DNA of 28,407 nucleotides from a virus. Taxonomy: Duplodnaviria > Heunggongvirae > Uroviricota > Caudoviricetes. Location: positions 1 to 28,407 of IMG/VR virus record IMGVR_UViG_2778260996_000020; one strand, 5' to 3'. The notes below the pieces were generated by a model. It made no database searches and was not told the DNA's origin. It saw nothing but the letters and a program-made list of their open reading frames with translations. This document shows, one piece after another, positions 9,598 to 28,101 of this stretch. Every line of letters starts with the position of its first letter. Position 1 is the stretch's first letter. The position numbers and the translations under genes are program-made.

Positions 9598-12500
9598 TTA
9601 CCCTAATTTAGCTTCAATTGCAGCAAGACGTTCACGAAGAAGTTTATTTTCTTCGCTCATTTCTTGGACCGCTTTAATTAAAAGCGCGTTCACTGCGGAG
9701 TTTGAAATTGTTAAAATTTCTTCTGGGTTATCAAAACCACCAATTTTTGCGGTTTTAACAGCTTCCGGTAATACCTCTTGTAAATCCTGTGCGATAATAC
9801 CAATCTCATGACCTATAACTTCTCGGTCATTAAGAGATTTAACTTTATCGTAGGTTTTAACTTTGAGTTTATTTACCTTATCCACCGCATTTTCTTCGTA
9901 ATCTTCAACATTAATTTTCAGACGACGATCGGAACGAATATAAACATCGTTAAAGTTTCCGTTACCAGTGGCATGAAATTCTCCACTTGCATGGAATTGA
10001 TAATCAGCACCCTGAACATGAAGAACCGCTGCCGCAGTATTATTACCATCACCCGGACAATGAACGTCCATAGCAGCGATATATTGACGCCCCCAATCAA
10101 CCGCTTTCCAAACAGCATGAGCACTGTCAATACTTTTCTGGCAGTCAACCAACAAACCAGCAGGGCGGTCTCTCCATGCAACATATGCACCACCATCAAC
10201 TTCACCACGGATAAGTCCTTGATCTGCGGCATAAGGAACACGCCCTTCCAGTTTAATCATCGCGCCCTGGAAGTGATGTGTAAATTGTCCACCGTGGTTA
10301 TTGCGAATATGTAAAATACCCTCATCTGTAGCCCAGATAACAGCCTTTTCCGTATCGCTATCATCTCTAAACCAGACGTGGCGAGCACCAGCAGAGTTTT
10401 TGATAGTAATCCCGGAAGGTCCATGCACAGTAAAAGCGCCAGCAACATCAAACATCAAACTGTTATCTGTCCTACGTTCAGTATAGAAGTGATAACCTTT
10501 GGAATCACCGACTTCCATCACTGCCGCGCGACCAACTTCTGAATTTCCCCAATTATTAATAGAGAATCGTTCAGAGCTATTATTCATCTGATTTAGGTAT
10601 AATGTACCATCAGTGAATGTTTCGCCAAAGAATCTGGTTTTAACGCCGTTAGTACCCCCCACGCGTTCAAATTCAGCCAAGAAACCTTTGGAATCTCGCA
10701 TACTCAAAACGTTATTGCGTCCTGTATTACTGTTACCCCAATGGATTAATTCAATATAGTCCATTGACTGACGAGACCCTGATCTAAACACCATATTATC
10801 TTCGATGCGGGTGCTACCATCAATTCCCAGATGTAAACAGCGTGCGGTAGCTGTGCCACCTAGATCTAATCCACCTTCGGCGAAATCATAACTAAATGGT
10901 CTACGAGTATTCCACGTCCCAAAGGAATCTTTTAAATCGGTAGTAAGAATATGGAAGCTAGAACCATCATTACGAAGGATTAAACCATAGTTACCACCTT
11001 TAACAGCCAAACGAGCATTTTCAGATAATGCAACTTCGCTATTCATTACAATTTTCTGGCCTCTACCGCCAGTAATATGTAATTCACCGTCTTCAATCAG
11101 GTTTATAGAGTTTTGACCGTTGTCGTTCCACCAAATAAAATCTTTGGTCTGACCATCACCGAAGCCAAACCAGCCATTACGAACATCTTGTCCAGTGCGA
11201 TAATCCATGAAATTAAAATGACTTGATTCGTTTGGTCCTCGACGAATATCAATACCAGCATTAGAACCGGAACCTAAGCCACCATCGATGGTCAATCTAC
11301 GAATATGCAAACCAGTCCCAGAAGACAACAATAGTTGTTGACCTGAGTCTGTACCTCCAGTGGCAAGACGATAATTCTGGTCATCAACGGTTTCATGCCA
11401 GATTGTCGCGCTGGCAGAGCTTCGAAACCGACGCAACATCTTTTTAGCATTTGTCGGTTGTTCGTTCATATGCTCAATGTCATATTGTCCTTGATGGTTT
11501 CCAGCAAAGTTTAACGTCCCACGGTTGCTAAAGTTATTGAACGATGAAATGTTAAGAGCATCAAAAATTTCGTCTGCAACAGGTTTTTCACCACCCAGAT
11601 ATTCAGGAGTATCCAACAGGTTTAAAGAAACACCACCGGAAGAAACTTGATATTCTGCTAAAACAAATCCTGTATGTGCACCGTAGTAAGCGTAAAGATC
11701 GTAATTGTCGCCATCGGTTGGAATAGCGCAAAAATGTTGTTCATAATGCCAAATAGTATAATACGCATTGAATACAACACCTTTCGGGCTATTGTTGCCG
11801 CATCGAATCACCAATTCGATAATATTGGCTTGTCCATTATGTCCTACGTTATAACCGTTACCACCAACCAAACGGATCTTAGCCGTGCGACCGTGTTGTT
11901 GTGGCATTGTCAAAGTGCCTAGTTTAAACCAACCACCCTCGATACCAAAATTAAGCGTCTTCTGGAACAGTCGGTCAATTTCTGCTTTCGAATATGCGCC
12001 AATTTCAGCCGGAGTAGGTTTATCGCCTTCATGATACATGCGGTGAGAATATGACAAATTACCTAATTCATCATAGCCGTATGTTCTTACAGTAGCATGT
12101 GGATTAGACCCATAAGTGAACTCGAAGCCACGAGCATGATTAACACCAGATGGATGCGGAACATGCAAGATCATTGCAATATGACCCGCCAGGTCATTCA
12201 TGCGGAATGCACCAAAGTAATCAAGATTACGCGCATTTGGATCATCAAAATAGTTTGCGGTCTTAGACAGCAAATAACCATCAGTATAAGTGTTTACGTG
12301 TTTTTTGATGTACTTGCCATCAGCAGATCCATCGGCTGCATCAATACGGCTTTCTAAACGTGCCAGTTCAGAATCAGTGTAAGACTTGTTATTGTCAACT
12401 TTGCTATGAATTGCTGTATTTTTGGCTTCAACATCACGGGTTAATGCTGCGACGTTATCCGCTGCCTCTTGCTTATTGGCTGCAATCACACCAGTAAGGT

Positions 12501-12963
12501 TATTGTAGGTGTCAGTTAACTGATTTTCCGCATAGACTTTATTTGCTGCGATAGTGCGGTCAGTTTCTGCCTTAATCAAATCAACCTTGTCATTGATTGC
12601 TTTGTCATTGCTTGCGATGGTTGCATCGGTGCGGGATTTAATATCATCAACTTTATTGTTAATTTCTGCGTGATTTGCTGCGATGGTTGCATCAGTAGTT
12701 TGTTTAATTTCATCTACTTTAGCGTGAATATTGCGGTCATTTACTGCAATTGTGCTATCTAGTTCTTGTTTGTTAGCATCAACTTTAGATTCTAGTGCCG
12801 CGTGAGTTTCAGGAGAAACAGAGATTTGAACTACTTCATGATCTCGGTCTTTGGTAAAAATAACATGGTCTTTAAGGTTGATTGCTACCTCACCGACCTG
12901 TAATTGTTCCGGCGTTGGTTTTTTGCCAGAAACATTAGTTCGTTTAAATTGGATTGATTGCAT
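9598..12963 (-). CDS. Tail/neck fiber protein with C-terminal intramolecular chaperone (peptidase S74-type) domain, 1121 aa
   Basis: C-terminal ~120 aa carry the Ser-Lys autoproteolysis motif SDRRLK followed by IGHEIGIIAQDLQEVLPEAV and a terminal coiled coil, typical of endosialidase / L-shaped-fiber chaperone domains. N-terminal ~150 aa of degenerate coiled-coil repeats (VDxIKxxTDATIAAN). Gly-rich central region. GAGGTGA SD. Confidence 0.8.
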   Translation of the reverse strand: MQSIQFKRTNVSGKKPTPEQLQVGEVAINLKDHVIFTKDRDHEVVQISVSPETHAALESKVDANKQELDSTIAVNDRNIHAKVDEIKQTTDATIAANHAEINNKVDDIKSRTDATIASNDKAINDKVDLIKAETDRTIAANKVYAENQLTDTYNNLTGVIAANKQEAADNVAALTRDVEAKNTAIHSKVDNNKSYTDSELARLESRIDAADGSADGKYIKKHVNTYTDGYLLSKTANYFDDPNARNLDYFGAFRMNDLAGHIAMILHVPHPSGVNHARGFEFTYGSNPHATVRTYGYDELGNLSYSHRMYHEGDKPTPAEIGAYSKAEIDRLFQKTLNFGIEGGWFKLGTLTMPQQHGRTAKIRLVGGNGYNVGHNGQANIIELVIRCGNNSPKGVVFNAYYTIWHYEQHFCAIPTDGDNYDLYAYYGAHTGFVLAEYQVSSGGVSLNLLDTPEYLGGEKPVADEIFDALNISSFNNFSNRGTLNFAGNHQGQYDIEHMNEQPTNAKKMLRRFRSSASATIWHETVDDQNYRLATGGTDSGQQLLLSSGTGLHIRRLTIDGGLGSGSNAGIDIRRGPNESSHFNFMDYRTGQDVRNGWFGFGDGQTKDFIWWNDNGQNSINLIEDGELHITGGRGQKIVMNSEVALSENARLAVKGGNYGLILRNDGSSFHILTTDLKDSFGTWNTRRPFSYDFAEGGLDLGGTATARCLHLGIDGSTRIEDNMVFRSGSRQSMDYIELIHWGNSNTGRNNVLSMRDSKGFLAEFERVGGTNGVKTRFFGETFTDGTLYLNQMNNSSERFSINNWGNSEVGRAAVMEVGDSKGYHFYTERRTDNSLMFDVAGAFTVHGPSGITIKNSAGARHVWFRDDSDTEKAVIWATDEGILHIRNNHGGQFTHHFQGAMIKLEGRVPYAADQGLIRGEVDGGAYVAWRDRPAGLLVDCQKSIDSAHAVWKAVDWGRQYIAAMDVHCPGDGNNTAAAVLHVQGADYQFHASGEFHATGNGNFNDVYIRSDRRLKINVEDYEENAVDKVNKLKVKTYDKVKSLNDREVIGHEIGIIAQDLQEVLPEAVKTAKIGGFDNPEEILTISNSAVNALLIKAVQEMSEENKLLRERLAAIEAKLG

Positions 12964-14768: not shown

Positions 14769-16772
14769 TCATTCAGAGATATGAAGAACTTTCAGAGCTT
14801 CCGGCTGGGTTACAACGTAATCCAGATCTACCCAGATACGCGGAACAATTGCGGACTGTGCACGGTAGGTGGTGTCGTCCATATCCAGTTCCAGACCGCC
14901 CCACTCACCGATAGTAATACCGGAGAAGTCACCCAGAACGATGTGGTCTGCCGGAATAACACCAGAAGTAACTACTTCGTAACCAGCCAGTTTGCCGTTT
15001 TCGATGATATAACCGGAAACGCCGTTATCTTTCAGGGTAGATTCCAGTTCAGCAGCAGTTGCACCGCTCATTGCAAACTTGATGGACTGTGCCGGAACGC
15101 CAGCGTCGGTCAGTTTAGCAATTTCTTTCAGGAAGTCTTTGTAGGTGAAAGCAGCTTTCTTCTCAACGCGGCTAGCGTCTACCAGTTGTTTAACCAGACC
15201 AGCCGGACCACGATCGTTAGCTTTATCAGACAGAATCAGTTGTTCCAGTTTGATACGAACAGCCTGGTTGATGTGATCAGTGATCAGGGTAGCGATACCC
15301 GGAACGGTTTTAATGCTCTGACGGCTGATCGGGTTGCCACCAGCAAAAGTCTTAGGAGACAGTTTCACGTTTGCAAATTCAGCTTTGCCTTCCGGTGCAG
15401 CACCGTTTTCATCAACGAAGCCGAAAGCGTCAACGCTGGATTTAGTCATTTTTGGAATAGCGGTCGGAGCAGTCAAGCCACTGTAAACAGTCACACCCAG
15501 ACGACCCAGAACGGATTCCGGCATCAGCATTTCGATGTAGGATTCAGTCATCAGTTTTTCATCGGTGATAGCAGTCAGGTCAGCTTTGGTGTTACCAGCA
15601 GCAGCAGCACGCATAGCAGCAGCCGGAACGAATACAGAGCCACCACGAGCAGCACGACCACGCTGCATAGTTGCAGTAGCAGCCATCGCAGAAAACTCGG
15701 CTTCGTGAGCACCCAGAGCTTCACCATCTACCAGAGAGCGAATTACGTTGTTCAGGTCAAAAGTTTTTTCCATTTTAGAGTCCTTAATTTGTTGTTCGTT
15801 ATTACGTTGAGCATTGACGAGATTATTTAGTGCCTTAGTGCGGAATGCTTCCGGCGTCATATCTTTAACTGCCAATGCGCGTTCTAATTCTTCGTCGTTA
15901 ATATTTAGTTCGCGAGCTATCTCGCGAATTTCTAATTCGTCTTCTTCGGAACGTTCAGCCACTTCCTCGATTTTTTCTTCTTCAACCGGAGCGGCTTCAC
16001 GTTCTTCTTTTACTTCTTCTGCTTCCCGAACAGTTGAACTATCATCATCAACACTTTCAGGATGTTCAGCGTCTTTTCCGTCTTCGAGATTTTCATCTTC
16101 TTTATTCTCTTCAACTTGGCGCTCTTGAGTTTCTTCTACTTCCGGTTCTTTAATTTCTTCTACCGGAGTTTCTTCAACCTGAGCGGGTTCTTGTTCTTCT
16201 TTGATTTCTTCGATTTGTTCTTTAGTCATATCGCGTTTAGCCTCCAAATTAACTGTGATAGTATTTAGAGAGCGATTTAAACCGACCGTATCGTCAGCAG
16301 GAACGGTAACGAAACTTAATTCGTATGGTGCCCACTTAGTAACAATTAATTGCCCTTTGGCGTAATCGATGTGATATTCTTTAATGTCATAACCGACAGA
16401 AATTTTTTCCATCGTACCTTCAATGACTTTATTGCGAATATCATTAGCCAAAGTCCCATGCTTGGAGAATTTAACCAGAGCACGACCTACGTTATCCGCA
16501 TCGATTCGAGCGTTACAAACAACACCAATGTGATTATCGAAATTATGATTGAACAGCAACGGAGCGTTATTATTCAGACGAGACAGATCAACCGCTTCCG
16601 GTGTATGTACCAGAATTTCATCTAATACCACCATTTCTTGATTTTGCTCATCCCAAAATTGGCGCTGATAAGGCTGTGTACTTGAGAAAGCAATTTCAAA
16701 TTCGTATTGATCGTTATGCCCTTCGTTAATAACTCCACCGTAACCGTTAAGATCGCGGCGAAATTTAAGCAT
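14769..16772 (-). CDS. Fused prohead protease (HK97 S78-like) - acidic scaffold-like linker - HK97-fold major capsid protein, 667 aa
   Basis: N-terminal ~170 aa resemble a prohead protease domain. Central ~130 aa are extremely Glu-rich and coiled-coil-like. C-terminal ~330 aa resemble an HK97-type major capsid protein. AAAGGTGA SD. Directly downstream of portal. Confidence 0.75.
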   Translation of the reverse strand: MLKFRRDLNGYGGVINEGHNDQYEFEIAFSSTQPYQRQFWDEQNQEMVVLDEILVHTPEAVDLSRLNNNAPLLFNHNFDNHIGVVCNARIDADNVGRALVKFSKHGTLANDIRNKVIEGTMEKISVGYDIKEYHIDYAKGQLIVTKWAPYELSFVTVPADDTVGLNRSLNTITVNLEAKRDMTKEQIEEIKEEQEPAQVEETPVEEIKEPEVEETQERQVEENKEDENLEDGKDAEHPESVDDDSSTVREAEEVKEEREAAPVEEEKIEEVAERSEEDELEIREIARELNINDEELERALAVKDMTPEAFRTKALNNLVNAQRNNEQQIKDSKMEKTFDLNNVIRSLVDGEALGAHEAEFSAMAATATMQRGRAARGGSVFVPAAAMRAAAAGNTKADLTAITDEKLMTESYIEMLMPESVLGRLGVTVYSGLTAPTAIPKMTKSSVDAFGFVDENGAAPEGKAEFANVKLSPKTFAGGNPISRQSIKTVPGIATLITDHINQAVRIKLEQLILSDKANDRGPAGLVKQLVDASRVEKKAAFTYKDFLKEIAKLTDAGVPAQSIKFAMSGATAAELESTLKDNGVSGYIIENGKLAGYEVVTSGVIPADHIVLGDFSGITIGEWGGLELDMDDTTYRAQSAIVPRIWVDLDYVVTQPEALKVLHISE

Positions 16773-16817: not shown

Positions 16818-18329
16818 TTAGGGATCGGCTGGGGAATTTTTTTCTTCACCCTCGCCATTAACGATAATATTTAGTGCGCTCTTTTCGGCTTGAATCTCTG
16901 AGAATACTTTTTCAGGATCATCACCACGTTCTAATATAACGGCAGTACGTGATTTAAGTCCTTTATCAATTAAAGCAATCTCGGCGTTTACGTCTTTAAT
17001 AGGATCGACGGATTCAAAACGCGGACGAATAATAGTAGTGTTGTCGATAATATGCGGAATTGCAGTAATACGAATCGGAACAATACCACGCGCGGAATAA
17101 TGGCGTAGATATGCTTCGAAAATTGGCAATACCACTGTTTCAATTAATTTGTTTTGCAGTGCTTTAATGCGGTTACGCTGAGTTAATTCACCAAAACGTG
17201 CGGCTGAGTAGTTGATCTGTGAACAATCTCCTGTTAAGCCCTGTTTAAACACGCCAAGACCCATCGCTATATGGGTGAACATGCCATCGTTGAAGCTGAT
17301 AAAGTCATCACCGTTTTGCGTCGCCTGAATACTCTTGATCGTTGCCCCTTCCGGCAATTCCTGAATAGTACCAGGTGCAAAATCCTGTACTACTTCCGGC
17401 GCTTGATATTGTTCATCCTCTTCACCAGTATCAAAATCGTCACCAGAATCTTTCGGACGTTCAATAAAGCCCATAGAGCTAGCTGCAATACGTTTCTGGA
17501 TGATCGCGGTTTCGCGGAACGCTTCTTGATGAGCAATATCCTTAATCACTGGCAGGAAGTCAGTCACACCACGTAAACTTTCCGCGCACAGTGGCTGGTA
17601 GTAGTGGCACACCTGAGAAGCATCTACGCGATAATTTTCGCCAGTGTAGGTCTGAGTCAGTAGATTGATTTTTCTAAACCAGTATGCTACAGGGCGCATT
17701 GTTTCTACGTCATACTCAATCCCTTGAAAGATCGCGCGGTCTTTGCTTATTTCACGACTAAGCGACCAGTCGCACCTATCAGCAGACAGAATAGAAACTT
17801 GTAACTCGTTGTTTTCTTTGGTTAAAACGATGAAGCATTCTCCACCCTGAACACGTTCAGATTCTGCCATTGCCAGCATTTCACGGAAGTTAAAGCGACC
17901 GTTGCGAGAGAAGCGTTTAGCACTCTGCGCCCACTTCCAGAAAGCATTCTCGATCTGCTTATTCAGTGCGGTGTCAAGTTTGCCATTTGATTTAACGATT
18001 GATGGTTTCGGATCAAGCCCCGTACCAACAACTTGGTCAACGATATACTGCTTGTATCGCTTGCCTACAGCATTGTTTATAGCCAGAGTACGACCCTGAT
18101 CATAAAGGCGCTTACCGTTCGATTTGAGAGCCTTATTGAAGGTTCCGGTAATGGTGTCTTGTTGAAGCTGTCCATCAATGCGATCACCGACCAAGCCCAA
18201 AGAACGCTTAGACAAATCTTTCTGGAATTTTTCTACTTGTTTGTCGATAAAGATTTTTTGTTGTTGCTGGCGGTGATTAGTTTTAACTGGAGTTTCTACC
18301 GCCTTTTTGCGTCGAAAAAGATTAAACAT
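16818..18329 (-). CDS. Portal protein (lambda gpB family), 503 aa
   Basis: Position after terminase. Motif HIAMGLGVFKQGLTG...YSAARF resembles the conserved lambda-family portal core (IAAGLGV...YSTAR). Confidence 0.75.
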   Translation of the reverse strand: MFNLFRRKKAVETPVKTNHRQQQQKIFIDKQVEKFQKDLSKRSLGLVGDRIDGQLQQDTITGTFNKALKSNGKRLYDQGRTLAINNAVGKRYKQYIVDQVVGTGLDPKPSIVKSNGKLDTALNKQIENAFWKWAQSAKRFSRNGRFNFREMLAMAESERVQGGECFIVLTKENNELQVSILSADRCDWSLSREISKDRAIFQGIEYDVETMRPVAYWFRKINLLTQTYTGENYRVDASQVCHYYQPLCAESLRGVTDFLPVIKDIAHQEAFRETAIIQKRIAASSMGFIERPKDSGDDFDTGEEDEQYQAPEVVQDFAPGTIQELPEGATIKSIQATQNGDDFISFNDGMFTHIAMGLGVFKQGLTGDCSQINYSAARFGELTQRNRIKALQNKLIETVVLPIFEAYLRHYSARGIVPIRITAIPHIIDNTTIIRPRFESVDPIKDVNAEIALIDKGLKSRTAVILERGDDPEKVFSEIQAEKSALNIIVNGEGEEKNSPADP

Positions 18330-18339
18330 GATTTACCCC

Positions 18340-18837
18340 TTATCGCGTAAGACGTACTTTAATATTTTTAATCGGGCTAATTCCCTGTTTACGTCGTTCG
18401 GCTTGAATTAATTTTGATAACTGACGTTCATAATCGACTTTTAGAGTCTGGAGAACAGCCAATGACTCATAGGCGAAAGTATTCCCTTTCACTGTCATTG
18501 CTGATAATGCGGCTTCGTCCCCAAATAAACGGGCGAAAATAACTTGCTCGATTAAGTCGATAGTTTCCCGCAGATATTCTTTTTTGGATTGTTTGGCGAA
18601 TACTGGCAAAACAGTTAATTCTTGCATCGATACCAGTTCTTCATCAAGAGTAATAACAATGGTCATCTTCCCTTCTGGAAAGTCTAACGTTTTAATCTCG
18701 TGATTAGCCGGAGAATCATCAACCTGATAGATGATACCTTTATTATTATTTCCTACCTGAATTGTTACACCCTCTTCATTCGCCAGCGTGATTTTTTCGC
18801 CTTTACGAATTACTAAGGGAATTAGTTCTAAACTCAT
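18340..18837 (-). CDS. Hypothetical protein between terminase and portal, 165 aa
   Basis: ORF in the position occupied by gpW-type head completion genes in lambda-like phages. No recognisable motif. Confidence 0.45.
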   Translation of the reverse strand: MSLELIPLVIRKGEKITLANEEGVTIQVGNNNKGIIYQVDDSPANHEIKTLDFPEGKMTIVITLDEELVSMQELTVLPVFAKQSKKEYLRETIDLIEQVIFARLFGDEAALSAMTVKGNTFAYESLAVLQTLKVDYERQLSKLIQAERRKQGISPIKNIKVRLTR

Positions 18838-18909: not shown

Positions 18910-20817
18910 TTAGAACGATGTTACCCAGCTACGGCCTCTATTTGGGCGTCTGGCGATGTTTTGACGTTGCGGTCGTGTGATTGGCTTAGTTTCTTCGATT
19001 TGCTCGTTAGATTGCGATTTAGGAGCTTCTACGGATTCTTCAACAACACGGTTTAAGCTGTCTTTCATTGCAATGAGTTTATCCCATGACATTTTTGAAA
19101 GGACGTAGCGAGAAGCCGCATAGCTATAAACCAGACAGTCGAGAGCCTCGTTTCGGGTACTACCTGGATTTTTCACCCAACGCACGCCAGTAGTAGTACG
19201 CTTGATGGATTCACTCAAAAGCTGATCGAGATAATCATCAGGAACGGTTTCTGATATTTCTAAGCCAATATGAGGATTATCTTTCAGGTTTCTAACCAGC
19301 ATTTCACGAACAGCGGATTTGCCAACGTTAACACCCAACATAAGCAATTCATGACCACCTGTGCGGGTAGGTTTAACCGGAATCACTGGAGCATTACCAG
19401 ATGAACTACCTTTGATCGCGTGTAGGTTCTTCCACTTGCCGCAAATACGGTATCCGGCTTGAGTGAATCGACCGTTCGATGTATCAAGGAAGCTGGCGAG
19501 CATAGGAACACGTTCACCCTTAACGTTATAGAATTTGGTTTTCTTGAAGTTAACCAGACGATCCCAAACAGGTGATTCATATCGTTCACAGTTATGATCG
19601 TAAAAGCTGCGGTGATCCAGAATGTAAACCTTATCTTTCGCTACACCTAAGATGGTAGATTCTGCGCGGTCCAATTGCTGGTCAATTCCTGAACACAAGA
19701 AAATAACGTCATCAGGAATATTCTCGATAGAAACATCTGTTTTGAGTTGTTCCAGTTCATTTGCTTCTACTGCCGTGTCCTGATCGTCGTACACCTTACC
19801 TAATACGGTGTTAAAAAATGATTGTAAATCAAAGGATTGCCACGCATGACTAAAATCAACCACACAAGCGCGGATCGTGCTGAAAGGTGAATACAGACGG
19901 CTGATCCAGAATCCTGCTACCTCACTTTCGCGGGTTGCTCTCCACTCGCCTTGCGCTACTGCCCTGATTCGTTCCCCTTCTGTCCATGCGTTCTTACAGT
20001 GGGGGCAAATATAACGAGCGGTATCAGGATCGGGTAAGTTCTTACCATCGATGTTACGCCATTCAAATTGAACGTTTTCCCACTCGATCACCTGGTGTTC
20101 CCCGCAATGCGGACACGGAACAAAAAACATACGCATATCGCTTGATAACCATTGCTGGTTAATGCTTCCGAGCTTACTGGTCGGGGTACTGGATACGACT
20201 AATCGGCCTTCATCGCCAAAGGTAGTTAAACGGTTAGCAGCCAGTGCCACCGGATCACCTTCTTCTGAGGCTGTAGCAGCATCGATTTCGTCTAGTAGTC
20301 CGACCTTTGCAGTCTTACCGCGCAGGGTTGATGGACTGGTAAGCGATACCATGTACAGGAAGTGATTCGTTTTTAGCTGGAGTTGGTTATTGTTGTTAAC
20401 CGCATTGCGATCATTCTTGTCTGTAACCACGTCTTTTAATGCATCACATGCTTCGATAGACGGTCGGATCTTACCAGCGAGATATTGAGACATTTCTTTA
20501 GCGGTTGATTGTCCGATAATCATATTGCATGGATCGTTAGCCATCTGGTTAAACAGGATGCCATTCAGGATGGTAGTCTTTCCGATCTGCGCACTGGTCA
20601 TCAGAACATACTTTTTCTTGTTCTCAAGGAAAGGAGCATCAATCATACCTTTCTGGAATGACAGCAATTTAACTTTATCCCCAGCTTGAGGACCATCTAC
20701 CAGCACCATATTAGCTTCGCACCATTCCGATGGAAGGAGTTTAGGCGGTGGCGTAATATATTTGGCTGCATTTCTGAGAATCTTTTTTAATTTGGCCTTA
20801 TTAGAAATTAGTTTCAT
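18910..20817 (-). CDS. terL: Terminase large subunit (GpA-like), 635 aa
   Basis: Walker A-like SAQIGKTT and Walker B-like VGLLDEID in the N-terminal ATPase half. Cys-x2-Cys pairs (CPHCGEHQ...CPHCKNAW). Acidic nuclease-like C-terminal half. GAGGGT SD. Confidence 0.85.
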
Positions 20818-20905: not shown

Positions 20906-21508
20906 ATGCTAATTAATCAGCAAGAAAGAGATGAATTAGAATTAGCCTTGTCTTGTACCGATCATGAATATCGTTTGCCAGTGAAGCACCATCACAAGAA
21001 GACTGATTACACAACATCTGGGTTTAGCCGTGAGGAAGCTAAACAGATTTTAATCGAGTTGTATCGTGATCATGGGTATACCGATATTCATAACTTCTTT
21101 AAGAAGCATCGCACATCACAGACAGAGTTTCAGCGAGTCCGTGAATGGTTTGATTTTGACATTAAGCGATTCTATCGAGTGGATGACGGTCCTATCTATC
21201 GGTTGCACTGGAAGCCGATCCGAGAAGTGTTGAAACAGAAGAGACTAAATCACGCAATTACACGCTATCGTAACGAGGCTTTCAAGAAAGGCTATGGTGA
21301 TACAAGGGAACTATTCGTTGAACTCGCTAACGTGCGTTATAGCCACTATTACAGGAATCCTAAAGAGTTCTTCGAAGTGCTGCGCAAGGTTGATATAAGT
21401 CGGGGTACATACTATTCACGGTTGAAGAAGTACGGGATTAGGGCAGAGTTCTTTATGAGTATTGACGACGGAGAACTTTTTCCTATAAAATGTAAGTCCT
21501 CTAAATAA
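20906..21508 (+). CDS. Hypothetical basic protein, 200 aa
   Basis: AAGGGGGG SD 6 nt upstream. Arg/Lys/Tyr-rich. Divergent from the terminase gene. Followed by a small HTH gene and a strong terminator. Confidence 0.5.
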
Positions 21509-21543
21509 AGGTGAACATTCACTTTAATTTGGAGAAAATGACT

Positions 21544-21768
21544 ATGACTACTAAAGCTACTCGCGGTCGTCCGGCACGTTTTAATCGTGAACAACTGGCA
21601 GCGATTGTAAAAGCGTACTATCAAGCGCCGAAAGGTAAAGCCGAAAAAGAACAAGTATTGAGTGAACACGGTATTTCAATTGCTCAATTCTACAAATCAC
21701 TCCATAAAGTTGATTTGAAATTCTTTGTTCAGGTTGACGGTGAAATGGTAGAAGCAACAGGAATTTGA
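21544..21768 (+). CDS. Small HTH DNA-binding protein, ~75 aa (paralog of 24965-25144)
   Basis: Track ORF starts at a GTG (21511). The ATG at 21544 has a GGAG SD at 9 nt. N-terminal RGRPARFNREQLAAIVKAYY resembles TetR/transposase-type HTH openings. Terminator follows. Confidence 0.5.
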   Translation: MTTKATRGRPARFNREQLAAIVKAYYQAPKGKAEKEQVLSEHGISIAQFYKSLHKVDLKFFVQVDGEMVEATGI

Positions 21769-21781
21769 TTCGATTCTCTAG

Positions 21782-21808
21782 GCCAATCCTTCGGGGTTGG
21801 CTTTTTTT
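21782..21808 (+). terminator. Intrinsic terminator after small HTH gene
   Basis: GCCAAUCC-UUCG-GGGUUGGC hairpin followed by UUUUUUUAU on the plus strand. Confidence 0.75.
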
Positions 21809-21821
21809 ATACCTACAGATA

Positions 21822-21847
21822 CAAAAAAAGCCCCTGAAATTCAGGGG
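21822..21847 (-). terminator. Intrinsic terminator after Rha-family gene
   Basis: Minus-strand RNA: GCCCCUGAAUUUCAGGGGC hairpin followed by UUUUUUUG. Forms a convergent terminator pair with 21782-21808. Confidence 0.7.
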
Positions 21848-21856
21848 CAAAAATTA

Positions 21857-22699
21857 TTACAGTCCGAAGACTTCCAGTGATCCAACATTCTGGCGAATCA
21901 GCAAAGCAGTGTTATTGACAATTGCTCGTGAGTTGTTCGGCTGTGGCAATTTCAAAGTTGCGGCCTTTTCTTCTTCAAGCAATCCGAGTTTTACGAGATG
22001 CGGGATAGCATCAGCAGTGAACTCGATCTGACCGTGTGCCGACATACGAGCGAACATATAGCCAGGAGGAAGCAGATCATAGCCTTTAGGCTTACCAGAA
22101 GCATCCAGACGACGCTCAAGAACACCAGCAGCACATAAACCTTTCAGAATCATTTGTACCGTCGTAGAGCCTCGTTTTTCGCCTAATAAGCGGCTAAGAC
22201 TGTGTGTGTCGATAGCTTTACGAACATGCAATTCAACCAGTTGTTTCTTTTCTTGAATCAGTTGTTCGTTTGCGGCTTCCAATTCCATTGCCTCACGAAT
22301 CCAGTCGAGCTTAGTCATGTTTGCGTAAGGGTTGATTTGCTGAGAACGCAGTTTTTCATTTTCTTCTTTCAGTCGTTTCCATTCCTGAATAACAACCATT
22401 CGACGCTTAACATCGTAACCAGTAACAAGAGTCAGAGTCATTTCTTCGTCTAAGTGATATACCGGTTCTTTAACAGCATACCCTAAGTTATTGATTCTCT
22501 CGACAAATTCAGTTTTGAGCTGATCGATAATACCTAAAGATTCGTACATTTCGCGAATATCGCGCATTACATTGCTGTGTTTCTTTCCGGTAAATTCAGC
22601 GATCTGACGAGAAGACATGGTCAGCGGTTTGGTGTTATCAACAACCAGAGACACGGAAGCAGTTTTAACAGCAGTATTCATAGCAGTAACAGTATTCAT
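21857..22699 (-). CDS. Rha-family phage regulatory protein (antirepressor-like), 280 aa
   Basis: N-terminal LTMSSRQIAEFTGKKHSNVMRDIREM matches the Rha/pRha domain signature. Coiled-coil middle. AAGGGG SD. Own terminator downstream. Confidence 0.7.
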   Translation of the reverse strand: MNTVTAMNTAVKTASVSLVVDNTKPLTMSSRQIAEFTGKKHSNVMRDIREMYESLGIIDQLKTEFVERINNLGYAVKEPVYHLDEEMTLTLVTGYDVKRRMVVIQEWKRLKEENEKLRSQQINPYANMTKLDWIREAMELEAANEQLIQEKKQLVELHVRKAIDTHSLSRLLGEKRGSTTVQMILKGLCAAGVLERRLDASGKPKGYDLLPPGYMFARMSAHGQIEFTADAIPHLVKLGLLEEEKAATLKLPQPNNSRAIVNNTALLIRQNVGSLEVFGL

Positions 22700-22788
22700 A
22701 ATTAAATTCCCCTTAAACGGTTTAGTGATATTGATCCTCCTAGTTCCGGCAGCATCACCGGAACATTTTTATTTATGATAGAAATTTA

Positions 22789-23121
22789 TTACCAATCGAT
22801 TTCTACTTGGTCTTCTTCATAATAAGGAATCGCATATTCATAACGCCAATTTTCGATGATTTCACGTTCTTCATTAGTAAGAAGGTGATTGTTAACTGGA
22901 GTCGCATTGTGATTACCAGCTTCGAATTGCTCGCGAACTTCCAGCATTGCATGAATACCAGTTAAGGTCATCAGATCAAACGGAACATGCATACTACGGG
23001 AGATAGTTTCACGGGATACGCCCCAATCATTTTCTACATGGCTAGGGGTTACAGAAACGGTTTTGCCGGAGATTTTAACAGTCCAGTCATACAGGGATTT
23101 AGTGATGGTAAATTCTTTCAT
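22789..23121 (-). CDS. Hypothetical protein, 110 aa
   Basis: ORF preceded by SD AAGAGGATG and a near-consensus sigma70 promoter (23178-23206). Confidence 0.5.
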   Translation of the reverse strand: MKEFTITKSLYDWTVKISGKTVSVTPSHVENDWGVSRETISRSMHVPFDLMTLTGIHAMLEVREQFEAGNHNATPVNNHLLTNEEREIIENWRYEYAIPYYEEDQVEIDW

Positions 23122-23177
23122 GTTACATCCTCTTTACAAATCCAGGTCAAATATAATAAAAGTTGTCAAGTGCGATA

Positions 23178-23206
23178 ATCATAAAAAAGTCATAAATTTT
23201 TGTCAA
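23178..23206 (-). promoter_or_regulatory. Near-consensus sigma70 promoter driving the 110 aa gene
   Basis: On the minus strand: TTGACA (23206-23201), 17 nt spacer, TATGAT (23183-23178). Confidence 0.55.
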
Positions 23207-23241
23207 TATACCTTGACAAGACGCCAAAGGGTTGACCTAAC

Positions 23242-23700
23242 TTACAGCATATCTAAGCCTTCATCGTAACCGTAGAAGCCACCGTGAGAAGAGAAAGCGA
23301 TTGGTGCGTAGTCTTCGTCTTCCTCATCTTCTTCATCTTGTTCTGGGGCTTCCTGAGCGGTTTCTTTGCCGTAATCAGCCATAATCTGGTCAAGATCGGC
23401 GATCCCATAGTAAGAGCCTAAATCAACGTCATATTCACGGACTTGAAACGGCAGATCATCACGAACAATAATTGCTGGAATATCGTTGTATTGAAGACGA
23501 CCTTCATCAGTAAAACAGTCGATGATCACAGTAGGACGACCATTTCGTTTTAAAGCGTAGAAAGCAGTTGAGTAGTTGGAGTCTTCGGAATGACGAATGA
23601 TGTTATAACCACGATTAGCGAAAACTTCTAGCATATGGAAGTTGCCATAGTTTTCAGAGTCCAGACCCAGAAGTACGAAAGGAGTTTTAGTATTGATCAT
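23242..23700 (-). CDS. Hypothetical protein with strongly acidic C-terminal tail, 152 aa
   Basis: ORF with AGAGGA SD. C-terminal EQDEEDEEDEDY stretch. Confidence 0.5.
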   Translation of the reverse strand: MINTKTPFVLLGLDSENYGNFHMLEVFANRGYNIIRHSEDSNYSTAFYALKRNGRPTVIIDCFTDEGRLQYNDIPAIIVRDDLPFQVREYDVDLGSYYGIADLDQIMADYGKETAQEAPEQDEEDEEDEDYAPIAFSSHGGFYGYDEGLDML

Positions 23701-23923
23701 AGTGGAAATCCTCTAAAAGAAAGTGAATCAAGTAAGTTCACTATTATTTATAACGAGAATTTTTTATCTATTTGGAAGTGATTGGATTCAGTCGGGCTAA
23801 AGCCCTCCTTCATATATTTGATTAAATCATCATCAAAACGAAGAAGTATCTTTAGAATATAAGAATCTTTCTTTTGGAGAAATTATAATCAGGAAGCAAT
23901 TTAGCAACCGAAGGTTGCAATCC

Positions 23924-23969
23924 CGAAGGGATACCAATCACTTTCTAGAAAGTGATTGGTATCCCTTCG
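23924..23969. repeat. 46 bp perfect palindrome
   Basis: CGAAGGGATACCAATCACTTTC-TA-GAAAGTGATTGGTATCCCTTCG; every position is self-complementary. A GCAACCGAAGGTTGC hairpin lies immediately upstream. Confidence 0.9.
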
Positions 23970-24277
23970 TTCGTTTACTAGAATCAGTTAGTAACTAGTA
24001 TTAAATCCCTTTCTAAGAAAATCCTTTCAAAAGCGAGTGAACGCCGTAGGCGTGAACGTGAGCGAAGCGAACTATCCAATCCCTTTCGAATCCTGCTTGC
24101 AGGTCTTAGAAGGTGTTGATGGGCGCTTCGCGCACGGCTACGCCGTATTCTTTTTGCGAGATCTTTCTTGAACGTAGTGAGAGAAAACGAGCAAAAAGGA
24201 GAACGTTAGTTCGAATTTTATATTCTATGGTCTGTGGGGTGAAATGTCTTTCAAGATCATACACTTATGAGATTGAA

Positions 24278-24399
24278 GTGTAGGGTTAGTGTAGGTGTGT
24301 AGGTTTCATAGTGTAGGTTTGAGGGTGTTATAGTGTAGGTTTACTGACTAGTGTAGTGTAGGCCAATACCTTTAAAGCGTAGGTTTGTAGTGTAGGTTT
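24278..24399. repeat. Iteron array: about 8 direct copies of (A)GTGTAGGTTT
   Basis: Copies at about 24278, 24290, 24297, 24311, 24333, 24356, 24377 (GCGTAGGTTT) and 24390. All same orientation, irregular 0-14 bp spacing. Confidence 0.85.
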
Positions 24400-24593
24400 T
24401 TCATCAAAAATTTTGATAGAAAATTCTTGTATATTATTTAACCGGAAAATCACCAAAAATCGCTGTAAATGCATGATTTAAAAAGAATTATCAAAAGGTC
24501 GCCGTGCTATAATAGGTTATAAAGGTTGATAATCGTTATCCGCCATTTTCACACAAAAATTTTGATAGTCATTTCTCGCTTAGGTCAAGTGCA

Positions 24594-24622
24594 TTGACAA
24601 CTGTCAAGGATTATTTTATACT
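24594..24622 (+). promoter_or_regulatory. Near-consensus sigma70 promoter for the 59 aa HTH / 339 aa / 80 aa operon
   Basis: TTGACA (24594-24599), 17 nt spacer, TATACT (24617-24622). The -35 lies inside a TTGACAACTGTCAA palindrome. Confidence 0.55.
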
Positions 24623-24964
24623 TTTTCTCATTGGTAGGGGTTGAAATTTTAGAAACAATCCCCATATTGATGATAAACAAGATTTTTTCGTGTATAAATA
24701 CATGCATGAAATGATTGTTCACTTCTGAAAATCCCCTGATTCACTGTTAACACACACAGCACTGGTTAAACACACAGTGCTTTTTCGATTGAATAATGTA
24801 CGAATTGATTAATTATTAATCTTCTCTTTAGCAATTCGTGCTCCCGCTGATCAGATATACAGTGGTTTTGCAGGGTTTTCTGAAATGACTTTTATAAATA
24901 GAAGTATCGAGGGCGAAAAGCTCTTTTTATTATCCTTATTAATCCACATTTGAGGAATCTACTT

Positions 24965-25144
24965 ATGGCTAGACCTGTTAAGTTTACTCGTGAAATGATT
25001 GTTGATATTGCTAAACGCTTTTATGGCGATACTGAACGAGGCGGCGAGAATTTCTTTAAGAAGGAAGGAATTGATAGAAGCGGATTCTATAAGCTAATGA
25101 AGAAATACGAAATTCAGATAAAGATTAACGTTCAAGTTTGTTAA
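24965..25144 (+). CDS. Small HTH DNA-binding protein, ~59 aa (paralog of 21544-21768)
   Basis: Track ORF starts at TTG (24950). The ATG at 24965 has a TGAGGAA SD. ARPVKFTREMIVDIAKRFY aligns with GRPARFNREQLAAIVKAYY of the paralog. Shared GI...FYK motif. Confidence 0.5.
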   Translation: MARPVKFTREMIVDIAKRFYGDTERGGENFFKKEGIDRSGFYKLMKKYEIQIKINVQVC

Positions 25145-25175
25145 TCCACTTTCACTGAGAATTATACGATGGCTT

Positions 25176-25216
25176 TAAAAATAAAAAGCCTCCCTTGTTG
25201 CAGCAAAGGAGGCTTG
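25176..25216 (-). terminator. Minus-oriented hairpin + T-run (antisense terminator candidate) between small HTH gene and 339 aa gene
   Basis: AAGCCUCC...GGAGGCUU 8 bp stem. On the minus strand it is followed by UUUUUAUUUUU. On the plus strand no U-tract follows. Confidence 0.4.
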
Positions 25217-25260
25217 AAATGAACAATTAAAACTAACACAGCATTCAGGAGTATTTATAA

Positions 25261-26280
25261 ATGAAAAATTCTAAGCGCATCACCTTCAACCTGTTTATTA
25301 AATCCAACGGCAAACTGAACATTACCGTCATGGAAGGTAAAGCAAGCAAACAAGACAAATCCTTTGAAGTAGTATCCGGTAAGACTCTGACCGAAATGCG
25401 TCAGAATGCTGGCATCAAAGACGGTGCTGAATGGCAGATCACTAACCGTTTCGACAAACGTCACGTTAAACCTACACTGGTAGAAGGTGAATCCGTTTAT
25501 TGCTTCGCTCGTGCTGCTAAAGCCGATGAAACTTACTATCTCGCTGTTGTTAAAACTGCTTCCGGCTTCCGTGCTGTAATGCATCACAAGAGCAAGCGTA
25601 ACGAATACGGCGTAGAGACCCAGGAAGTTGCTAAACGCTTCCGTACTGTTGCTACCGAATCCACTGTAAAAGATGTTTCTGGTACTGTTAACACCACTAA
25701 AGGCGGTTCCTTCTACAACCACGCATTACAGGTTACTTCCTCCTTCTTCTGCAAAAAAGAAGCACAGAAAGAAGTTGCTCCGGTAGTAGTTGAAGAAGTT
25801 AAAGAAGAAGTTGCAGTGGTTGAATCTTCCGAAGTTGAAGCACTGAACGCACGCATTGCTGAACTGGAAGCAGAAATGGCAGCAGTTAAAGCAGAAAACG
25901 CATCTCTGAAAGCTGAACTGTCAGCACAGGAAACCACTTTCGAAGTAGCAGCGGTTGAAGTTGAAGCAGTTGAAGAAAAATCCATTGATGAAGAACTGGA
26001 AGAACTCCTTAACTATCGTTGGGGTAACGGTGAAGAAGTAGAACAGAAAGAAGCTGATCCGGTAGTAGTTCCGGTTCCGGTTGAAGCAGAATCCGCACCA
26101 GTTACCAACTTTGAAACACTGCGCAATAACTTTATGGCTAAATTCAAAACCACTTGGGAAGATACCGAAGAAGAACAAGAAGAGATTGAAGTAAACGAAG
26201 ACGAGATCCGCGAAGCACATATGGCACTGCATGACGCTATCTATGACACCAACTACAGCGCCTACGCATACGCAGCTTAA
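25261..26280 (+). CDS. Hypothetical acidic coiled-coil protein, 339 aa, probable highly expressed early protein
   Basis: AGGAG SD. Codon usage strongly biased toward major E. coli-type codons (CTG, CGT, GAA, AAA, GTT, ACC, TCC), unlike neighbouring genes. Central Ala/Glu coiled coil. Acidic C-terminal third. Confidence 0.6.
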   Translation: MKNSKRITFNLFIKSNGKLNITVMEGKASKQDKSFEVVSGKTLTEMRQNAGIKDGAEWQITNRFDKRHVKPTLVEGESVYCFARAAKADETYYLAVVKTASGFRAVMHHKSKRNEYGVETQEVAKRFRTVATESTVKDVSGTVNTTKGGSFYNHALQVTSSFFCKKEAQKEVAPVVVEEVKEEVAVVESSEVEALNARIAELEAEMAAVKAENASLKAELSAQETTFEVAAVEVEAVEEKSIDEELEELLNYRWGNGEEVEQKEADPVVVPVPVEAESAPVTNFETLRNNFMAKFKTTWEDTEEEQEEIEVNEDEIREAHMALHDAIYDTNYSAYAYAA

Positions 26281-26295
26281 TAGAGGGGTGAATCT

Positions 26296-26538
26296 ATGAT
26301 GAATCAAAACAAAGAATTTCTGGGTAATCTGATGTTAGAAATTACCAAAATGAAAGAAAGAATGGTAGCGATGGAATCAGAGATTAAAACACTTAAAGCT
26401 GATAATAAGGCGTTGAGAAAGTCCTTAAAGCTGATTGATGAGACTAATGCGGTTATGATGGATCATGTATTCCCTGAGTGGCGAAATGAAACTAAACCTA
26501 CACAACATAAGAAACTTACACTTCGAATTGTTGCATAA
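26296..26538 (+). CDS. Hypothetical coiled-coil protein, 80 aa
   Basis: GAGGGG SD. Translationally close to the upstream gene. Heptad-like sequence. Confidence 0.5.
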   Translation: MMNQNKEFLGNLMLEITKMKERMVAMESEIKTLKADNKALRKSLKLIDETNAVMMDHVFPEWRNETKPTQHKKLTLRIVA

Positions 26539-26560
26539 AAAAAAGGACTCCGAAGAGTCC
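26537..26560 (-). terminator. Minus-oriented intrinsic terminator
   Basis: Minus-strand RNA: GGACUC-UUCG-GAGUCC followed by UUUUUUUU. Confidence 0.6.
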
Positions 26561-26636
26561 CTAGTAAGTTTAGGTTAGGTTTGCACAACAAAGATGAGGT
26601 TATAATGAACATAATGCTACATTATTCTTTAAAGCC

Positions 26637-26662
26637 AGAAAAATAACCGCCCCGAAGGGCGG
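26637..26662 (-). terminator. Minus-oriented intrinsic terminator
   Basis: Minus-strand RNA: CCGCCC-UUCG-GGGCGG followed by UUAUUUUUCU. Confidence 0.55.
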
Positions 26663-26821
26663 GAGGATTAATACTCAATCTATACTTGTTATGTTTTTAT
26701 GTTGTATAGATCCTGACTATGAAAACACTGTACTGGAAGTGTGTTTTTATGGCTTTTAATCGGGAATCCTCAAAGAAGATCCCCTGTTAATAACCATAAG
26801 GAGAAAAGGCAGATTACACTA

Positions 26822-26995
26822 TTATTTAGTATCCTTTTTACAGCAACTAAAAAGAATAAACAAAAAGAAGCATACCCAGCCGTAAGGCGTACCGATTAGA
26901 AATTTGAAAAACACCACCAGCGATATAAAAATCAATTTAATGCCAGCGACGATAGTCAAAAACAGCAGAGTAGCAAAGTAGACAAAAAGATCCAT
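26822..26995 (-). CDS. Small hydrophobic membrane protein, 57 aa (not in ORF track)
   Basis: Hand-translated: MDLFVYFATLLFLTIVAGIKLIFISLVVFFKFLIGTPYGWVCFFLFILFSCCKKDTK. AGAGGA SD 7 nt upstream of ATG. Two predicted hydrophobic helices. Confidence 0.4.
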   Translation of the reverse strand: MDLFVYFATLLFLTIVAGIKLIFISLVVFFKFLIGTPYGWVCFFLFILFSCCKKDTK

Positions 26996-27048
26996 AGATA
27001 ATCCTCTTTGAAAACGACCATCATCTATAGTTCAATTCATCGATTTAA

Positions 27049-27150
27049 TTAATGATACTTGAAAGCGTTACACAAAGTAGAAATGCCAATATGTGCCAGT
27101 GAATATACGATAGTTAATCCTACAGCCAGATAAATCAAAAATTCAACCAT
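27049..27150 (-). CDS. Small hydrophobic peptide, 33 aa (not in ORF track)
   Basis: Hand-translated: MVEFLIYLAVGLTIVYSLAHIGIFYFVNAFKYH. GAGGA SD 8 nt upstream. Single predicted TM helix. Sits directly after a hairpin terminator. Confidence 0.3.
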   Translation of the reverse strand: MVEFLIYLAVGLTIVYSLAHIGISTLCNAFKYH

Positions 27151-27170
27151 AGGTAAATCCTCAAATAAGA

Positions 27171-27199
27171 AAAAGGTTAGCGGGGGATGTTCTCCCCCG
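27171..27199 (-). terminator. Weak terminator downstream of Nu1-like gene
   Basis: 7 bp GC stem (CGGGGGA/UCCCCCG) followed, after CUAACC, by UUUUUCUUAUUU on the minus strand. Confidence 0.4.
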
Positions 27200-27250
27200 T
27201 AGACGTTGACCAGCTCAACATCCTTCACGTATATATTTAGTATCTAATTT

Positions 27251-27802
27251 TTAAGACACATCAAATTCATCGTCTTCTTCTGGTTCTTGTTCCGGTTCAT
27301 CCATTAATGGTAATTCTTCTTCCTCGTCTTCTCCCAAATCTGCATTTTCGAACAAGTCCCCTACTTCATTTAAACGACGCTCGATAATCTCTCTTAGCTT
27401 ATTCTTCAATGTTTTCTGGTCATTGGCAGATTCGAGAATTTCTAGGGCATCGATTGTGGCGATCTGCAAAATAGTCTGCTTCACTTTCCCGCAATATTCC
27501 GCTAGCTCCTGCTCCACATACCCGACGGGAATCAGGAGATTCATCGCTTCCTGGTTCTCTCGTTCGGCTGCATCTGCTAATGCTCTCTCACGGCGTAATT
27601 TCTCTACGTCGATTTGTTCCTTGACAGTAGTTTCTTTAAGCGGGTTGATGATATTTTTCAAGACCCATTCTGTTCCTTCTTTGGCTGGCACGCGGCGGGT
27701 ATTGGTATTAAATGGCATTCCTCGTTCTTGCCATTTCTTAGCGGCGTTAATTGTATAGCCGTATAAACGGGAAATTTCTGTAAGGGTTAATTCTTCTTTC
27801 AT
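27251..27802 (-). CDS. Nu1-like DNA-binding protein (candidate terminase small subunit), ~183 aa
   Basis: Start placed at second ATG (27802), which has a GGAGGA SD. N-terminal LTEISRLYGYTINAAKKWQERGMPF resembles the winged-HTH of lambda Nu1 (IRTIQNWQEQGMPV). Followed by EKLRRE coiled coil and acidic C-terminus. Confidence 0.5.
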   Translation of the reverse strand: MKEELTLTEISRLYGYTINAAKKWQERGMPFNTNTRRVPAKEGTEWVLKNIINPLKETTVKEQIDVEKLRRERALADAAERENQEAMNLLIPVGYVEQELAEYCGKVKQTILQIATIDALEILESANDQKTLKNKLREIIERRLNEVGDLFENADLGEDEEEELPLMDEPEQEPEEDDEFDVS

Positions 27803-28101
27803 CCGGTTATCCTCCATTAAATTTGCGTAAAATTATTTATCTGATCTGCGCATTCAGGAGAGCGCCTAAAACGCTTTATAACGAAGGGAAAGATCGAGGC
27901 ATGGAAAGGGATTGGCGGGTGTTAATAGTCGCGTAGCGACCGCGCTGGTGGGCTGCACTGCACCTGTTTTGAAATCTCACACGTACATCAAAAACCGGGG
28001 TGCCGAAAACTCCCTTTATTTCACCCGTGGAACAGTACCTTTTGATTTGGTCAAGTCTTTTTTATAAATAATCGAAAATATTTTTCACGCGAGGGCAAAT
28101 C

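Follow-up and report, generated by a model that had tools for sequence, protein, structure and literature searches.

A probable Nu1-like small terminase gene 6.4 kb from its gpA-type partner in an Escherichia coli prophage group, with a candidate cos-like site upstream

Terminase Genes of the Window

The stretch of DNA considered here, called the window throughout, comprises 28,407 nucleotides (nt) of a virus assigned to the Caudoviricetes (IMG/VR virus record IMGVR_UViG_2778260996_000020, positions 1 to 28,407) and represents a prophage of Escherichia coli. It carries terS, a gene whose product, TerS, resembles Nu1 of phage lambda, and terL, which encodes a large terminase subunit (TerL) of the gpA type. 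The two genes share a strand, with terS upstream, and 6,433 nt separate the terS stop codon from the terL ATG. A gpW-like gene and then a portal gene follow directly downstream of terL. An earlier note on this DNA, made from the sequence alone, had described a Nu1-like gene about 6.4 kb from terL, with genes on both strands and iterons between them, and had called the arrangement atypical. Both descriptions hold; the two genes overlap in lambda, and terS abuts or overlaps terL in the sister clades discussed below. The principal genes are as follows:

16818-18329, minus strand: lambda-family portal gene (Pfam Phage_portal_2, 1.6e-65)
18340-18837, minus strand: gpW-like head-tail joining gene (phrog_5774)
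18910-20817, minus strand: terL, gpA-type large terminase (Pfam GpA_ATPase, 1.5e-56; GpA_nuclease, 8.2e-44)
20906-27228, both strands: intervening early or regulatory/replication block, recognized from its open reading frames (ORFs), family scans and repeats
27251-27802, minus strand: terS, with a helix-turn-helix (HTH) at about residues 1-39, helices at 40-152 and an acidic tail at 153-183

The Probable Small Terminase Subunit

The terS ORF starts with the ATG at 27802, which follows a GGAGG, and ends with the stop codon at 27251-27253; it encodes 183 amino acids. An in-frame ATG upstream, at 27817, overlaps the ribosome-binding site and is a less likely start. The N-terminus of TerS reads MKEELTLTEISRLYGYTINAAKKWQERGMPF, and the WQERGMP motif, which the earlier note had taken as part of a Nu1-like winged HTH followed by a coiled coil, is present at residues 24-30 and is succeeded by long predicted helices. 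The AlphaFold2 model, built with an 18-sequence alignment as input, has a mean predicted local distance difference test score (pLDDT) of 77. In this model the winged HTH occupies approximately residues 7-39 (helices 7-13 and 18-26, strand 37-39), helices span residues 40-89 (about 50 residues), 93-125 and 129-152, and the tail at 153-183 is acidic and disordered, its last residues being DDEFDVS.

Family, profile and fold comparisons together carry the likeness to Nu1 beyond chance. The PHROG terminase small subunit family, phrog_57, matches residues 1-168 of TerS (profile positions 9-190 of 199) with an E-value of 1.6e-15; the same family is matched by all 20 TerS family members tested and by lambda Nu1 itself (E-value 1.3e-76, with the Nu1 query sequence checked against NC_001416). 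Alignment of the TerS family profile to lambda Nu1 by hhalign gives a probability of 92% and an E-value of 5.6e-7, with approximately 25% identity between TerS and Nu1 over 85 aligned columns. The best terminase matches in a profile search of the PDB are to the Nu1 DNA-binding domain (6hn7_B, 0.027; 1j9i, 0.084), and 6hn7_B is also the top Foldseek match of the TerS model (probability 0.96, template modelling score 0.62 on the target). An exhaustive profile search recovers 124 related cluster representatives, mostly of about 160-190 amino acids. Judged by these comparisons, TerS is a divergent branch of the Nu1 family that falls outside the boundary drawn by Pfam, and its gene very probably codes for the small subunit of the DNA-packaging enzyme in an uncharacterised prophage of E. 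coli.

Neither the window nor L002, a complete copy of the prophage, shows a second terS-like ORF, whether by PHROG scan or by a six-frame search with a hidden Markov model (HMM) of the TerS family. The six-frame search returns one match per prophage, and PHROG scans of the remaining ORFs of L002 identify only an integrase, an endolysin and tail genes. The earlier note had proposed looking for another terS candidate, and had named a canonical terS adjoining terL as grounds for refutation. That condition does not refute the reading: the DNA upstream of terL lies within the window and holds only two small genes, p200 and p85, which are transcribed divergently. These were considered as candidates for terS and rejected: they lie on the opposite strand and match no family, a paralogue of them is located in the origin-like region, and distant relatives of the clade with separated genes do not keep them beside terL.

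Gene Order in Related Prophages

Of 5,426 complete E. coli genomes, 64 carry a prophage of this group, which also occurs in Salmonella; in most carrier genomes RefSeq labels terS as "hypothetical protein." A large serine recombinase inserts the prophage into codB or hicB, or alongside a 2-hydroxyacid dehydrogenase gene, depending on the strain (L001, L002, L064-L069). The terS gene lies about 0.5-1.7 kb from one prophage end.

The strongest evidence that terS encodes a small terminase comes from its surroundings in related loci. The clade to which the window belongs (the E. coli family, Salmonella P0049, and P0071-like and P0072-like members) is represented by 44 loci, with terS identity down to about 34%. 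Throughout these loci terS and terL share a strand, with terS upstream by 4.8-8.6 kb, and the interval contains an early block on both strands together with about 1 kb of non-coding DNA. Even the distant relatives L032 and L034 have a comparable two-stranded block and an intergenic region of about 1 kb between the two genes. The sister clades (P0075-like, P0079-like and a Rouxiella sp. prophage, L079), which include both prophages and metagenomic phages, contribute 22 further loci in which TerS is 25-32% and TerL 39-43% identical to the proteins of the window. They share with the window a homologous TerS, a gpA-type TerL, the gpW-like and portal genes and the DNA block upstream of terS described below, and differ in that terS abuts or overlaps terL, followed by the gpW-like and portal genes; in L031 the called terS and terL genes overlap by 29 nt. 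Because orthologues abut or overlap terL in these clades, the TerS family is, from gene order, the small-subunit partner of this TerL lineage. The separation in 44 closer relatives, against adjoining genes in 22 distant ones, makes the split a derived, stable and old trait of one clade.

In other phage groups, too, terS and terL can lie apart, and the split is thus unusual but not unprecedented in kind. A literature search, which was incomplete and gives only a weak negative, found no account of this prophage group and none of a lambda-type phage in which an early region divides terS from terL. Tools that look for terS beside terL will miss the gene described here.

A Conserved Block Upstream of terS

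Upstream of terS lies a conserved non-coding block, followed by a less conserved interval that extends to the gene. Features of this region are listed in order from the block towards terS:

27958-28043, minus strand: single-copy non-coding block of about 86 nt, matched by model R1, proposed equivalent of cosQ-cosN
28034-28040, minus strand: heptamer AGGTACT, proposed cosQ-like element; the pattern stands 24-27 nt before the core in 22 relatives
27986-28012, minus strand: core GAGTTTTCGGCACCCCGGTTTTTGATG, proposed cosN-like nicking region and the most conserved part of the block in both clades
27995-28004, minus strand: GC-rich GGCACCCCGG within the core
27803-27957, minus strand: proposed cosB-like interval between the core and terS
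within 27928-27945, minus strand: GTCGC-NNN-GCGAC, candidate TerS site in the cosB-like interval
27903-27912 and 27883-27894, minus strand: T/C-rich repeats ATCCCTTTCC and ATCTTTCCCTTC, candidate TerS sites
27824-27852, minus strand: dyad TGCGCA-N17-TACGCA (TGCGYA-N17-TRCGCA), candidate TerS site

The block is detected by a sequence-only model, R1, which scores 49.7 bits (E-value 1.4e-13) at 27958-28043. Of 47 sources searched, 45 give exactly one confident R1 match, as does each of 6 further loci, 51 in all, 36 of which were not used in building the model. Every confident match lies just upstream of the gene and shares its strand, both where terS is separated from terL and where the order is canonical, and the block is conserved even between phages whose TerS proteins are only 34-45% identical, as seen in alignments of the upstream DNA. 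Its layout consists of a heptamer, NGGT[A/T/C]C[T/C], a spacer of 24-27 nt, GTTTCG with a GC-rich stretch, a T-rich run, and TATGTGA...TTTxAAAAC. RNAalifold predicts zero base pairs in the block, so an RNA element is unlikely; Rfam places no family on it and gives only chance hairpin matches, these being on a palindrome elsewhere in the window.

The arrangement resembles that around the cohesive-end junction of lambda, where GGGTCCT is followed by a spacer, a GC-rich cohesive-end sequence and a T/A-rich segment (NC_001416). In one relative of the window, L062, the heptamer is itself GGGTCCT, the same heptamer that stands upstream of the lambda junction. The lambda heptamer is taken here to be cosQ. 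MAFFT sets the lambda cosQ-cosN-I2 junction in register with the block. The 7-bp cosQ is reported to be highly conserved (PMC4669245). The spacing to the gene is also similar, the core being about 200 nt from the terS ATG and lambda cosN 190 nt from the Nu1 ATG (NC_001416); in the sister clades the distance from block to terS is mostly 67-113 nt and in a few loci about 500-700 nt. On account of its single copy linked to terS, its lambda-like layout and spacing and its lack of predicted RNA structure, the block at 27958-28043 may be read as the equivalent of cosQ-cosN, and 27803-27957 as that of cosB. The proposed cohesive-end region differs from that of lambda, GGGCGGCGACCT.

The dyad at 27824-27852 has TAAATA near its centre and immediately precedes the ribosome-binding site of terS. 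All enterobacterial variants retain it, even those in which the neighbouring DNA has been swapped, and it has the look of an operator or of a proximal site for TerS.

Natural Mosaics of the Proposed cos Region, terS and terL

Relatives that are mosaic in this region separate the proposed elements from one another. In L064-L066 the block is 98% identical to that of the window, while the DNA from about -200 to terS codon 83 is only 46-72% identical and the rest of terS 90-98%; between the window and L064 the core GAGTTTTCGGCACCCCGGTTTTTGATG is 98% identical and its flanks 46-72%. The cosB-like interval and terS codons 1-83 have thereby been swapped as one unit. Hybrids between lambda and phage 21, and between lambda and N15, share cosQ/cosN and differ in cosB and the TerS recognition helix, and in them cosB and the HTH-encoding 5' end of terS constitute one packaging-specificity unit (PMC4669245). 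The breaks in L064-L066 are those of the hybrids hy51 and hy4, in which cosB and the terS 5' end are exchangeable and cosQ/cosN and the 3' end of terS that binds TerL are shared (PMC4669245); the hybrids were studied experimentally, whereas the exchange in L064-L066 is read from sequence mosaicism. Since the swapped unit is the same, the modular exchange supports identification of the region as a cos site.

A second set of mosaics concerns terL. Two TerL alleles, about 56% identical over residues 26-590, occur behind near-identical terS genes (18910-20817; L003-L026), with the first 14 and the last approximately 45 residues conserved across both. Given that the ends are conserved while the region between them is so divergent, the body of the motor protein is exchanged as a cassette. 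The conserved N-terminus is of interest as a possible contact with TerS:

20776-20817, minus strand: codons for TerL residues 1-14, proposed TerS-docking peptide on the basis of co-variation with the C-terminal half of terS

These 14 residues are invariant wherever the window-type C-terminal half of terS occurs, even with the 56%-identical TerL body. L025-type and Salmonella TerL proteins begin instead with VKKLSNKFKLKRIF and MKHISNKNKLKRIF, and the C-terminal halves of their terS genes differ as well; the L025-type TerL body is 84% identical to that of the window despite the different N-terminus. Such co-variation would fit a contact between the C-terminus of TerS and the N-terminus of TerL, as in lambda. 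With one mosaic set exchanging cosB and the HTH region and another the TerL body around a retained N-terminal peptide, these natural recombinants are useful for dissecting how TerS reads DNA and how it holds TerL.

A Model for Packaging

TerS is likely to be a divergent small terminase of the lambda Nu1 family that acts with the gpA-type TerL encoded 6.4 kb away, at a cos-like site that precedes its own gene. By analogy with lambda, the winged HTH of TerS would bind sites in the interval of about 150 nt upstream of terS, the equivalent of cosB, and binding there would position TerL on the GC-rich core at approximately 27986-28012, the equivalent of cosN. The helical C-terminal half of TerS would hold TerL, probably through the first 14 or so residues of the latter, and the heptamer AGGTACT, 25-30 nt upstream and equivalent to cosQ, would serve in termination of packaging. 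The analysis shows membership of the family, the lack of any other terS candidate, the conservation of the split across a clade and the linkage of a single-copy conserved DNA block to terS; the identity of the block as cos, the nick positions, the sites bound by TerS and the TerS-TerL contact are inferred. Within this temperate siphovirus clade, cos and terS would have remained a unit while an early/replication module came between terS and terL; as this module lies between the genes, terS and terL would be transcribed separately and not from overlapping genes.

The system represents a variant, new in its gene order, of the Nu1/gpA/cos system of lambda and does not overturn the known mechanism. 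It has in common with lambda the TerS family (PHROG 57), the TerL family (GpA_ATPase, GpA_nuclease), the order terL-W-portal, and a cos-like block with heptamer and GC-rich core directly upstream of terS. It differs in gene arrangement, the lambda genes Nu1 (191-736) and A (from 711) overlapping where those of the window are 6.4 kb apart with early/replication genes between them, and in the acidic tail of about 30 residues on TerS, which Nu1 does not have. Subunits of the lambda type are normally made from overlapping genes; with separate transcription units their ratio and timing would be set in another way. The family profile, together with the linked DNA block, offers a means of locating terS along with its probable cos site in prophages of this group, and the clade is a natural setting in which to study uncoupled expression of the two subunits.

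Several observations weigh against this model. The earlier note had suggested an HMM search against Phage_Nu1 and small terminase families: phrog_57 matches, as described above, but Pfam Phage_Nu1 (PF07471) scores 15.3 bits against TerS, under the 30-bit gathering cut-off, and covers the HTH only. Among the relatives 12 of 20 match the Pfam family, all below threshold (best E-value 3.7e-5), and an NCBIfam scan of TerS gives no useful match. The likeness of the block to lambda cos is short and partly compositional, and the sole exception to its position is found in L027 (P0070-type), where a weak R1 match (E-value 0.042) at 10614-10671 is downstream of terS. Physical ends are not seen: each of the five metagenome contigs that carry the block runs through it, and none ends in the core. 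The co-variation of the TerL N-terminus with terS reflects only about three independent recombination events and could be mimicked by linkage. No cultured phage relative is found among 50,697 phage records by megablast with a 10.4-kb region or by tblastn with TerS, and some copies of the prophage are interrupted by insertion sequence (IS) elements or carry deletions (L001, L002, L023), which bears on prophage activity. Finally, a late promoter or a regulator site would likewise be conserved upstream of terS.

Alternative Explanations

This last point leads to the main alternative, namely that TerS is correctly identified and that the upstream block is a promoter or a regulator site, for example that of a late activator, with the packaging site elsewhere or ill-defined. 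The block is located where a promoter would be expected, a hexamer TTGACA or TTGACC stands directly before the heptamer in enterobacterial members, and the metagenome contigs show no DNA termini. The hexamer is not kept, however, in distant relatives that retain the block (L034, L031, L043-L056), and a promoter scan upstream of terS finds no sigma-70-like site there. A heptamer, a fixed spacer of 24-27 nt and a GC-rich core correspond to the cosQ-cosN arrangement of lambda, not to a -35/-10 pair, and exchange of the DNA that separates it from terS leaves the block 98% identical, as cosN is likewise kept from lambda to phage 21 (PMC4669245). A site of either kind is regarded as unlikely.

A second possibility, raised in part by the earlier note as a Nu1-fold regulator unrelated to packaging, is that the protein is a regulator or the directionality factor for the large serine recombinase of the prophage. 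The winged-HTH fold of TerS also matches Xis, RdfS, BldC and MerR-type proteins, and lambda Nu1 and two TerS family members weakly match an excisionase family, phrog_66. On the circular map terS is near attP and the recombinase, and no directionality factor is annotated in the prophage. Directionality factors of the Xis/winged-HTH type are, by comparison, proteins of about 50-100 amino acids that consist essentially of the HTH alone and are tied to an integrase, whereas TerS has 183 amino acids and a conserved helical region of about 110 residues common to orthologues that overlap terL. In Foldseek the Xis/Rdf fold matches of TerS cover just 50 or so residues and are less strong than that to Nu1, while terS-family homology spans the whole protein beyond the HTH. 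Orthologues abut or overlap terL in 22 loci, at least one of which (L031) also has a serine recombinase, and a gpA-type terminase needs a small subunit for which no other candidate is found. With sister-clade orthologues overlapping terL, a role outside packaging is very improbable. A dual role is a slighter prospect still: besides marking cos, TerS, made on a timetable of its own, might supply the missing directionality factor or a regulator through its Xis-like winged HTH, an idea suggested by its uncoupling from terL and by the location of terS with cos next to the attP/serine-recombinase arm on the circular map. One DNA-binding protein would then link excision and packaging.

The earlier note had further suggested that the iterons or the palindrome between the terminase genes could be the packaging recognition site. 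These are the following:

24278-24399: GTGTAGG iteron cluster; 16 matches in the window against 1.6 expected
23924-23969: perfect 46-bp palindrome with 23-nt arms and no spacer

Both are prominent in a 1.5-kb non-coding stretch between the terminase genes, and an exact 9-mer, ATCCCTTTC, is common to the palindrome neighbourhood and the region upstream of terS (three exact copies in the window, two near the palindrome and one upstream of terS). The iterons nonetheless follow the gene p339 and its neighbour p80 and not terS. All 11 sequences with p339 (the window and 10 related loci) have 8-14 copies of GTGTAGG, and all 14 loci that do not carry it have at most four, although terS is 89-99% identical in most of these and 98-99% in several. 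At the corresponding position, the Salmonella and L025-type relatives carry iterons that are not related to these. The palindrome is specific to the copy in the window, being absent from all 24 related E. coli loci checked, and ATCCCTTTC is not enriched in the window when one mismatch is allowed (12 found against 7.8 expected), which leaves it as a lead only. A packaging role for either element is therefore highly improbable; as their copies track p339, the iterons are instead part of an exchangeable module, probably for replication.

The iteron cluster co-occurs strictly with p339 and p80, and loci that do not carry these genes have other DNA there, a pattern which suggests alternative replication-origin or initiator modules. 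After the iterons come a stretch rich in A and T and a promoter close to consensus, TTGACA-17-TATACT, at 24594-24622. Nowhere in the prophage, of approximately 34 kb, can a known replication protein be recognized.

That the prophage is a defective remnant, and the distance between terS and terL a recent rearrangement devoid of functional meaning, is scarcely credible: several copies do have IS elements or deletions (L001, L002, L023), but the layout recurs in 44 loci with terS identity down to about 34%, in differing hosts and integration sites and with all genes intact.

Other Features of the Prophage

The block between the terminase genes includes the following ORFs and elements:

20906-21508, plus strand: p200, 200 amino acids, HTH-like, divergent from terL
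21511-21768, plus strand: p85, 85 amino acids, HTH-like, divergent from terL
21857-22699, minus strand: Rha-family gene, within the block that splits terS from terL
within 20906-27228, minus strand: p110 and p152, ORFs
24965-25144, plus strand: p59, 59 amino acids, HTH-like, beside the iteron region
25261-26280, plus strand: p339, 339 amino acids; together with p80 it spans 25261-26538
within 25261-26538, plus strand: p80, 80 amino acids
26822-26995 and 27049-27150, minus strand: two tiny hydrophobic ORFs (57 and 33 amino acids) just downstream of terS
27181-27199: GC-rich hairpin followed by a T-rich run, between terS and the hydrophobic ORFs

Both halves of p200, p85 and p59 are paralogous small HTH-like proteins (p85 against p59, pairwise E-value 3e-8), and none of the three has a match in Pfam, PHROG or NCBIfam. 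The two hydrophobic ORFs could encode membrane peptides, possibly exclusion, toxin or holin-like. The prophage end on the terS side carries variable cargo, for instance an LprI-family lysozyme inhibitor, a CapR-like gene and a TIR-domain gene (L032).

The best match to TerL is in "Escherichia phage DCP80" (PQ671644.1, L072), which was set aside; it has neither a terS match nor the cos-like block. This 141-kb record, assigned to the Straboviridae, starts with a gpA-type terL 43% identical to that of the window, the ORFs after it are arranged like the head module of the window, and it looks like a chimeric assembly that includes a siphovirus or prophage fragment.

In the structural region of the window, a major head protein of 667 amino acids (14769-16772, minus strand) has matches to major-head families as well as to a "major head and protease" family (phrog_617, phrog_4523) and may be a capsid protein fused to a maturation protease or scaffold. 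Between the head and tail modules, a protein of 1,121 amino acids (9598-12963, minus strand) resembles the C-terminus of the T4-like long-tail-fibre distal subunit (phrog_1699, 1e-138), and a second large fibre or tail-tip gene is located at 1-3192.

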